This document shows, piece by piece, positions 31,801-34,800 of a stretch of DNA of 64,000 nucleotides; the stretch's first letter is position 1; every line of letters starts with the position of its first letter. The position numbers are program-made. Location of the stretch: NCBI RefSeq assembly GCF_057098645.1, contig NZ_CM169472.1; one strand, 5' to 3'.

Positions 31801-34800
31801 CACCCACAGCTGGTCAGGACGTTCTGCCACGAACTGACGGTTTACGCGGTCGCCTGCGGAAACGGCTTTCCGGCTGACGGTAGTACGGACCTTTTTACCC
31901 CGGAGAACACCGGCAAGTCCCATAACCGCCATGAGACGTGCCACAGTGCATCTGGCCACTCTGATACCTTCCCGTAACAACTGACGCCAGACTTTACGCA
32001 CACCGTATACCTTGTGATTTTCATCGTATACGCGCTGTATCTCTCTCTTCAGCCAGTCATCGCGCTGAGCACGGGCACTGCGTTTATCAGGATGATGTCG
32101 CTGTTGCTGACAGTGGTAATACGTTGACGGGGCAATATGCAGTTCACTGCATACCGGTCCGACCCCGTACTGCTCACGCAGCTTATCCAGCAGCGGCATT
32201 ATTTTTTCCAGAGGCGGTCGAACTCCGCCTTCGCAAAATAAGCGGAAGCCTGGCGAAGGATATCGTTACTGCGGCGCAGTTCACGATTTTCACGTTCCAG
32301 CTCTTTCAGACGCTGACGTTCAGCGGTGGTGAGTCCACCATCACCACTCCCGGTATCCCGCTCATGCTGACGAACCCACACACGCAGAGTCTCTGGTGTA
32401 CAGCCAATCTTTGGGGCAATGGAACAAATTGCCGCCCATTGTGAGTCATATTCGCCCTGACTTTCCAGAACCATACGAACTGCCCGTTGACGGACCTCGG
32501 GGGAAAAACGTGTATTTTTAGTCATCCTGTTTACCTCTTTCTCAGGGAGTTTAGTCTCCAGGATTCCCGGGGCGGTTCAACCGGAAATCAAAACAACTGA
32601 CGGCGAGGTGACTTGTGTTGGTCGCCAGAAAATGAAATTAGGCAGCAAACCACTTATTTGAGGTGAGATATGACAAAATCATGGAGCGTACCTTTTCCTG
32701 AATCAGAAACTGAACATGATGGAATGCCTGTTTTCTGGAGATTCCAGGCGACAGTTGAAGAAGATGGGATAAAAATATTCGCACTTCAATATATAGCTTT
32801 TCATCAGACAGAGCATTATGCATGGTTGGTTCCTGCGCATTGGATTGTTAATTTTAAACCAGCACCAAATCAGTGGTTACAGGAATGGAAACAAAGGAGA
32901 AATAGATATGCAATTAAGAAAGTAGCAAAAAATGCAGAAAGATCTTTTGCATTCCCAACGAAGAAACTTGCCATTGAAAGTTTATTGCGCCGGAAGAAAT
33001 ACCATTTAATGAGAATCAAACAAGATTTGGCTGTTGTATCAACTCTTGTTGATGGTATGAAGAATATTGATACATCAACACCAGATATTGAATATAACTT
33101 TGGACACAACCAAGAAACAGAAAATTGGGTATTTTATTAGTACGAATAAGCACTGTGTATTCATTCCAACGAGTGAATACACGGAGCAATGTCGCTCGTA
33201 ACTAAACAGGAGCCGACTTGTTCTGATTATTGGAAATCTTCTTTGCCCTCCAATGTGAGGGCGATTTTTTATCTGTGAGGATATGAACAGATGTCAAACA
33301 TCAAAAAATACATCATTGATTACGACTGGAAAGCATCAATAGAAATTGAAATCGACCATGACGTAATGACAGAGGAAAAACTTCACCAGATTAATAATTT
33401 CTGGTCAGACTCTGAATACCGACTCAATAAACACGGCTCTGTATTAAATGCTGTATTAATCATGCTGGCGCAACATGCTCTGCTTATAGCAATTTCAAGC
33501 GACTTAAATGCATATGGTGTTGTGTGTGAGTTCGACTGGAATGATGGAAATGGTCAGGAAGGATGGCCTTCAATGGATGGTAGCGAAGGAATAAGAATTA
33601 CCGATATCGATACATCAGGAATATTTGATTCAGATGATATGACTATCAAGGCCGCCTGAGTGCGGCTTTACCGCATACCAATAACGCTTCACTCGAGGCG
33701 TTTTTCGTTATGTATAAATAAGGAGCACACCATGCAATATGCCATTGCAGGGTGGCCTGTTGCTGGCTGCCCTTCCGAATCTTTACTTGAACGAATCACC
33801 CGTAAATTACGTGACGGATGGAAACGCCTTATCGACATACTTAATCAGCCAGGAGTCCCAAAGAATGGATCAAACACTTATGGCTATCCAGACTAAATTC
33901 ACTATCGCCACTTTTATTGGCGATGAAAAGATGTTTCGTGAAGCCGTCGACGCTTATAAAAAATGGATATTAATGCTGAAACTGAGATCAAGCAAAAGCA
34001 TTCACTAACCCCATTTCCTGTTTTCCTAATCAGCCTGGCATTTCGCGGGCGATATTTTCACAGCCATTTTCAGGAGTTCAGCCATGAACGCTTATTACAT
34101 TCAGGATCGTCTTGAGGCTCAGAGCTGGGCGCGTCACTACCAGCAGATCGCCCGTGAAGAGAAAGAGGCAGAACTGGCAGACGACATGGAAAAAGGCCTG
34201 CCCCAGCACCTGTTTGAATCGCTATGCATCGATCATTTGCAACGCCACGGGGCCAGCAAAAAAGCCATTACCCGTGCGTTTGATGACGATGTTGAGTTTC
34301 AGGAGCGCATGGCAGAACACATCCGGTACATGGTTGAAACCATTGCTCACCATCAGGTTGATATTGATTCAGAGGTATAAAACGGATGAGTACAGCACTC
34401 GCAACGCTGGCTGGGAAGCTGGCTGAACGTGTCGGCATGGATTCTGTCGACCCACAGGAACTGATCACCACTCTTCGCCAGACGGCATTTAAAGGCGATG
34501 CCAGCGATGCGCAGTTCATCGCATTGTTGATCGTCGCCAACCAGTACGGCCTTAATCCGTGGACGAAAGAAATTTACGCCTTCCCTGATAAGCAGAACGG
34601 CATCGTTCCGGTGGTGGGCGTTGATGGCTGGTCCCGCATCATCAATGAAAACCAGCAGTTTGATGGCATGGACTTTGAGCAGGACAATGAATCCTGTACA
34701 TGCCGGATTTACCGCAAGGACCGTAATCATCCGATCTGCGTTACCGAATGGATGGATGAATGCCGCCGCGAACCATTCAAAACTCGCGAAGGCAGAGAAA

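Follow-up and report, generated by a model that had tools for sequence, protein, structure and literature searches.

A probable GamS-only leader allele of gam, of the type carried by phage 933W, in a decayed lambdoid prophage

Introduction

The gam gene of phage lambda (NC_001416, 32816-33232) stands in the order cIII-kil-gam-bet-exo and is assigned two products, GamS of 98 aa and GamL of 138 aa. Here we describe the kil-gam region of a 64,000 nt stretch of contig NZ_CM169472.1 (assembly GCF_057098645.1), referred to throughout as the window, which shares with lambda this gene order, the ribosome-binding site and start of the 98-aa form, and a complete Gam domain. It differs from lambda in the leader that precedes gam: lambda has CTATTT, a distance of 120 nt between an upstream ATG and the gam ATG, and an ORF of 138 codons, whereas the window has CCATTTT, a distance of 121 nt and no 138-aa ORF. 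The closest described relatives of the window copy are the Stx phages 933W (AF125520) and BP-4795 (AJ556162) and Stx2-converting phage 86 (AB255436), whose allele is identical to that of the window. Unlike the window copy, which is cut off by an IS3-family element, these are complete, inducible phages that retain pL and N. More distant members of the Gam family (Pfam PF06064) are found in Salmonella, Citrobacter, Escherichia albertii and RecE-type Escherichia coli prophages, where they are 97-100 aa long and are followed by RecT-family and YqaJ-family genes; these differ in their protein identity of 72-89 % and in having a RecE-like gene, a KilR-like gene or a divergent kil upstream, and all lack a counterpart of the 40 residues that distinguish GamL from GamS.

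On the evidence presented below, we consider it highly probable (roughly 0.9) that the window carries one of two major natural kil-gam leader alleles of lambda-family phages, a GamS-only, '933W-type' CCATTTT allele. In this allele, an ATG internal to kil lies out of frame with gam, and gam would be translated from its own AGGAG, at a 7 nt spacing, as a 98-residue GamS-type protein, the RecBCD inhibitor that is conserved in the family. The extension of 40 codons in GamL would be possible only where the CTATTT allele is combined with a lambda-type kil upstream.

Reading frames at kil-gam

Frames and coordinates were read from the window sequence between 33700 and 34600 and from the ORF list. The kil gene (47 aa) occupies 33865-34008 on the plus strand, matches Pfam PF06301 (Lambda_Kil) at 72.4 bits, corresponds to the annotated kil of 933W, phage 86 and lambda, and ends in a TAA at 34006-34008. 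Within it lies an ATG at 33963, created by the Kil codons AAA-TGG (Lys-Trp), that opens an ORF of 50 codons on the same strand (33963-34115, stop at 34113-34115); this ORF is in the +1 frame with respect to gam, ends 32 nt into gam, and gave no match in a Pfam search. The gam gene itself (34084-34380 to the end of its stop, plus strand) is intact, and its 98-aa product belongs to PF06064 as a predicted RecBCD inhibitor of the GamS type. As the two ATGs are separated by 121 nt, they are out of frame, and upstream of the ATG at 34084 the gam frame meets a stop 18 codons away with no ATG between. Thus, the in-frame ATG 40 codons 5' of gam, followed by an open frame throughout, that defines GamL is absent from the window. 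The original prediction for this DNA, made from the sequence alone, had described an ORF of about 50 codons from 33963, out of frame with a gam running from 34084 to 34380, and all of these coordinates agree with the ORF list. Between the kil stop and gam lies a leader of 75 nt (34009-34083, plus strand), which travels with the gam module even behind genes other than kil.

As a separate observation, kil (33865) and gam (34084) in the window share one frame, their starts being 219 nt apart with stops at 34006 and 34027 between them, whilst in lambda the two genes are in different frames.

Comparison with lambda

Alignment of the kil-gam region with lambda NC_001416 revealed 98 % nucleotide identity and a single indel, at which the window reads AGCCATTTTCAGG and lambda reads AGCTA-TTTCAGG; over a longer interval, the lambda sequence CTATTTCAGG corresponds to CCATTTTCAGG in the window. 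The polymorphic site covers 34065-34070 on the plus strand (CATTTT in the window, TATTT in lambda), and its two changes, C34065 and a fourth T, are always inherited together. The added T falls within the T run at 34067-34070, directly 5' of the AGGAG at 34072-34076, and the spacing from AGGAG to the gam ATG is therefore the same as without it. In lambda, the distance of 120 nt between the ATGs yields the annotated 138-aa GamL. Residues 1-34 of the window's 50-codon ORF are identical to residues 1-34 of lambda GamL at 32 of 34 positions, a likeness that is due to homology of the DNA rather than to chance. Accordingly, the original prediction was right to liken the start of this ORF to the N-terminal extension of GamL and to explain the loss of frame by one extra T in the run. 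It had allowed that lambda might have the same nucleotide count here; the alignment, with 120 nt in lambda and 121 nt in the window, shows that it does not.

The 98-aa Gam as the conserved unit

A search with Pfam PF06064 matched 34084-34377 of the window over profile positions 1-98 of 98, with a score of 216.8 bits (cut-off 25), which agrees with the earlier claim that the 98-aa GamS frame is intact. In lambda GamL the same family match covers residues 41-138, and the PDB chains found with lambda GamL as query (2uuz, 2uv1 and 5mbv) cover lambda Gam 40/41-138, which is the form of 98/99 residues. The DNA of the window gam is ∼98 % identical to lambda gam, whose 40/41-138 product is that of the 2uuz and 5mbv chains, and from its near-identity to lambda GamS we infer that the window Gam would inhibit RecBCD. 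The partners of gam in Red recombination, bet (34386-35171) and exo (35168-35848), follow downstream on the plus strand; both were taken from the ORF list and are annotated under these names in 933W and phage 86. The window thus has a Red-type module, and its order gam-bet-exo, with RecT-like and YqaJ-like genes downstream of gam, is kept in 933W, in phage 86 and in the distant homologues.

With GamL as the query, 332 clusters were returned from a set of 5.8 billion proteins. Among the best 120 of these, clusters that share 72-99 % identity with the GamS part have lengths of 97-100 aa and originate from E. coli, E. albertii, Salmonella, Citrobacter and Raoultella, whilst the extension is covered only by clusters at least 96 % identical to lambda. 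Because gene callers can pick short starts, the upstream DNA was inspected directly, and a total of 256 loci from three scans were compared for upstream starts. Of the 256, 97 have an ATG that lies in the gam frame, 40 codons 5' of the gam start, namely 93 loci with CTATTT behind kil and four with other kil-linked leaders. The window allele was found at 90 loci without the lambda-type kil ATG motif upstream and at 46 behind kil, and at none of these 136 is there an in-frame upstream ATG. RecE-type loci have an in-frame stop one or two codons 5' of the gam ATG, and in three Salmonella loci TTCAGGAGTTCAGCC-ATG is kept at 72 % protein identity, with unrelated DNA farther upstream. At one further locus, L138, a leader of the window type stands behind a KilR-family gene and lacks an in-frame ATG. 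In ∼95 IMG/VR contigs, homology to the window starts near 33999-34005, at the kil stop, with leader and gam retained. This is a mosaic junction, produced by recombination, at the kil stop (33999-34008), with the 75 nt leader moving together with gam. Many prophages share the leader and gam-bet-exo but differ in the gene upstream; in L138, the one such locus examined, the KilR-family gene ends in the same CAC-TAA. The data as a whole show the GamL extension to be a lineage-specific and non-conserved feature that is dispensable for phage viability.

Translation signals and leader RNA

The AGGAG ribosome-binding site at 34072-34076 (plus strand) lies 7 nt before the gam ATG, in the TTCAGGAGTTCAGCC-ATG context that is conserved in the Salmonella homologues. 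Predicted pairing with the 3' end of 16S rRNA was compared with that of 511 ATGs sampled from 20001-45000 of the window. The gam ATG scored -6.9 kcal/mol, placing it in the top 5 % of this background, whilst the ATG at 33963 scored +0.4 kcal/mol, a value that ∼85 % of the sampled ATGs equal or better. A strong ribosome-binding site is therefore predicted at the gam ATG and none at the kil-internal ATG. An open stretch of 40 codons is expected here by chance with P ∼0.18.

Two hairpins are predicted in the leader, both on the plus strand. The first, found by a consensus scan and RNA folding, is a weak terminator-like element (GCCUG-N8-CGGGC followed by GAUAUUUUC; 34033-34059), of which the hairpin proper, of 5 bp, occupies 34033-34050 and is followed by GATATTTTC. 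Its folding z-score of -1.3 is not significant, and as all four bases occur among haplotypes at position 34036 of the stem it displays no structural conservation. It maps to ∼33162-33135 of lambda, which we take to lie close to the reported tL2b termination site. The second is a small hairpin (GUUCA-gcca-UGAAC; 34076-34089), present in both the minimum-energy and the centroid structures, that takes in the last base of AGGAG and in which the second and third bases of the gam AUG are paired. RNA structure was considered as the reason for conservation of the leader and was set aside, the terminator-like hairpin being weak and position 34036 of its stem variable. In an Rfam search of 33200-34600 no family was found in the leader, the cIII thermoregulator being the only significant match.

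Is the GamL extension coding?

One alternative, which we consider very unlikely, is that the upstream ATG is in fact used. In lambda-type phages it would then give GamL, and in 933W-type phages it would yield either a 50-aa peptide that modulates GamS initiation or, through +1 frameshifting at CAU-UUU-C, a restored GamL. Several observations weigh in this direction or against the GamS-only reading. Gam purified from infected cells by Karu et al. in 1975 reportedly ran at ∼16 kDa. Variants were also scored over the 56 nt by which the extension runs beyond kil, using 76 and then 87 haplotypes, with 18-19 variants; two further IMG/VR scans contributed hardly any new haplotypes linked to kil. The ratio of non-synonymous to synonymous polymorphism (pN/pS) was 0.41-0.45 in the GamL frame, compared with 1.5 and 0.7 in the two remaining frames and 0.33-0.35 for GamS. 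Synonymous changes in the GamL frame account for eight of the 19 extension variants, a borderline excess seen in that frame only (binomial P = 0.07, uncorrected for transition bias), which hints weakly that the GamL frame may be translated. Stop-creating variants number 0 of 19 in this frame, as against one and two in the others, and the alleles with 120 nt spacing from the first IMG/VR scan are all open as far as gam. Furthermore, reviews give lambda Gam as GamL plus GamS, 'presumably' from two start sites and both active when over-expressed (PMC5218532, PMC11610958), and as they accept both isoforms GamL may be real in lambda. The statement in the original prediction that GamS is the active form in lambda is for this reason too narrow, since activity upon over-expression is reported for both (PMC5218532). 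A 'GamL' named in PMC12315714 was not counted as lambda GamL, as the name there denotes a different protein, of phi80.

Against use of the upstream ATG stand its want of a ribosome-binding site and the fact that it is fixed by the Lys-Trp codons of Kil. Moreover, the variable sites of the extension are split 4 : 8 : 7 over the three codon positions, without an excess at third positions, and codon 25 varies between Pro, Leu, Arg and Gln. Behind KilR-type genes, where the ORF has no start, the leader is conserved to the same degree, and the extension is missing from all of the more distant homologues. As for frameshifting, inspection of 34030-34115 by eye revealed none of the known +1 motifs: the 0-frame A site after the T run holds neither a stop nor a rare codon, and no ribosome-binding-like sequence precedes that run. 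Both allele states coexist.

We regard as similarly improbable a related proposal, that the population maintains both leader alleles as functional alternatives. Under it, ribosomes translating the 933W-type peptide would stop 32 nt into gam and would tune GamS through the hairpin that pairs its AUG. What speaks for this is the synonymous excess in the GamL frame (P = 0.07), together with the near 50 : 50 split of the alleles among phage records reported in the next section.

Allele frequency and natural carriers

The distribution of the two alleles was determined with exact-match probes, a 61-mer for the window and a 60-mer for lambda. In the collection of complete E. coli genomes (5,426), the window allele was matched in 1,424 records and the lambda allele in 748, making the former the majority form among exact matches. 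Phage records contained 79 and 81 exact matches, respectively, and IMG/VR contigs at least 120 and 107. Across a 541 nt kil-gam stretch, the window is 100 % identical to BP-4795, vB_EcoS_ST2-8624 and Stx2a_WGPS9, and 99.4 % identical to 933W; the 121 nt spacing is also that of 933W and Stx2 phage 86. Viable carriers of the window allele include 933W, phi24B, BP-4795 and Min27, as well as the lambda-like isolates ev207 and 2B8. The separation of the GamL extension from gam is already on record in GenBank, where 933W is annotated with the 98-aa Gam only and Stx2 phage 86 has both pieces called gam.

In a gapped-pattern scan of IMG/VR, in which 120 contigs were listed, the spacing between the ATGs was 120 nt in 65, 121 nt in 48 and 119 nt in seven. 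The last of these represents a third leader allele, with a deletion of 1 nt in the C run just past the kil stop (window 34009-34012), which independently destroys the GamL frame, a stop following after 21 codons. It was seen in the seven IMG/VR contigs (e.g. L046, L061 and L062) and in L131, a prophage of E. coli O157:H7 F3113. With regard to linkage, the first 76 haplotypes comprised 31 with C34065 and the extra T and 45 with T at this position and no extra T, and the association held in 87 of 87 in the extended set. As the extra T is always paired with C34065, the two form an old two-change haplotype and not the bare homopolymer slip that one extra T would suggest. The outgroup leaders considered for the polarity of the indel, those of Salmonella and RecE-type loci, are unalignable 5' of the ribosome-binding site.

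These data also bear on whether the window has suffered a recent inactivating frameshift, by which the long form of gam was made a pseudogene in a decaying, defective prophage. The surroundings would suit such an event, given that the prophage is degraded, with an IS3-family element in place of pL and N, and that the late genes of a related O157 prophage are missing here. We nevertheless hold it to be very improbable. The same allele is shared by the inducible, plaque-forming phages 933W, phi24B, BP-4795 and Min27 and by the lambda-like ev207 and 2B8, and must therefore be older than this remnant; the phage records as a whole contradict an origin solely in defective prophages, and the conserved domain of 98 aa is undamaged. 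A frameshifted pseudogene was thus rejected as a description of the gene, the indel lying outside the intact 98-position family domain and the allele being in the majority in E. coli. With respect to the word 'frameshift' in the original prediction, what stands is a length difference of one base that makes the GamL frame unreadable; what does not stand is the choice of lambda's 138-aa ORF as the norm, as the conserved unit of the family is 98 aa and the allele of the window is no less common than that of lambda. An error of sequencing or assembly in a truly lambda-like sequence with GamL in frame, which had also been raised, is extremely improbable and in effect refuted, for although the difference falls in a T run and rare homopolymer variants do occur here in some assemblies (e.g. 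the 171-aa Kil-GamL fusions, on one or two contigs each), at least 1,424 complete E. coli records, 79 phage records and ≥ 120 IMG/VR contigs match the 61-mer exactly, C34065 accompanies the extra T every time, and the 541 nt are 100 % identical to independently sequenced phages.

Among variants of the kil end of this region, rare ORFs that bear both Kil and Gam Pfam domains were found in Logan assemblies: P0002, P0005 and P0008 (171 aa) and P0006 and P0007 (212-213 aa). P0002 is Kil 1-33 joined to GamL and fits a single A added to the A run that precedes the ATG of GamL; as each such ORF occurs on only one or two contigs, they may be homopolymer errors. The kil stop codon itself (34006-34008) is polymorphic: of the 76 haplotypes, 65 have TAA and 11 have TAC. 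In the sequence context of the window, TAC would lengthen Kil by seven residues, as far as the TAA at 34027-34029.

Implications

The gam of the window is thus an ordinary, intact gene of the Stx-phage type, the allele being very common and the 98-residue inhibitor intact, and the missing extension has little consequence for this locus. GamS would be the only Gam product here, although expression of gam is itself doubtful, as the remnant is without pL and N. Of broader relevance is that the 138-aa GamL of lambda, which is the reference annotation in NC_001416 and an isoform in reviews, cannot be produced from at least half of the gam loci found in nature. For annotators this means that a 98-aa gam should not be flagged as truncated or frameshifted, and functional comparisons of GamL with GamS should treat GamL as specific to the lambda-type lineage.

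Prophage context

The IS3-family element occupies 31312-32579 on the minus strand, with orfB at 31312-32199 and orfA at 32199-32525 (Pfam rve, HTH_21 and HTH_Tnp_1). In a blastn comparison, homology of 933W to the window begins at 32580, in the last ∼30 nt of N; as it starts inside the 3' end of this gene, the cIII-kil-gam-bet-exo remnant lacks pL and nutL as well as most of N. The module lies in a decayed prophage at a tRNA-Arg(CCU) site (tRNA 24483-24557), which is followed by an IntS-type integrase gene at 24683-25885. Minus-strand ORFs at 25982-30652 agree in length and position with nleD, nleH, nleC and nleB2, type III secretion system effector genes of an O157 prophage, and the nleH-like ORF has an OspG kinase domain. 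Beyond exo are found genes for a 73-aa TraR/DksA zinc-finger protein (36582-36803), which resembles lambda Orf73, an Ead/Ea22-like protein (36800-37570) and a DUF551 protein of 410 aa (37410-38642). Neither the ORF list nor the Pfam scans made here revealed an integrase ORF at this end (36582-38642) of the lambdoid fragment. As the lambdoid early-left genes are directed away from the integrase at 24683-25885, the element is best described as a rearranged mosaic. Its arrangement between 24000 and 44000 is not covered to ≥ 80 % by any of the 5,426 complete E. coli genomes, the best reaching 52 % at 96.9 % identity.

Upstream of kil, the Rfam match mentioned above is to Lambda_thermo, the cIII thermoregulator, at 33719-33777 (88.5 bits, E = 6.6e-22), and overlaps the cIII start ATG at 33732. 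The cIII ORF is intact in the window, whilst in the related O157 F3113 prophage it is frameshifted.
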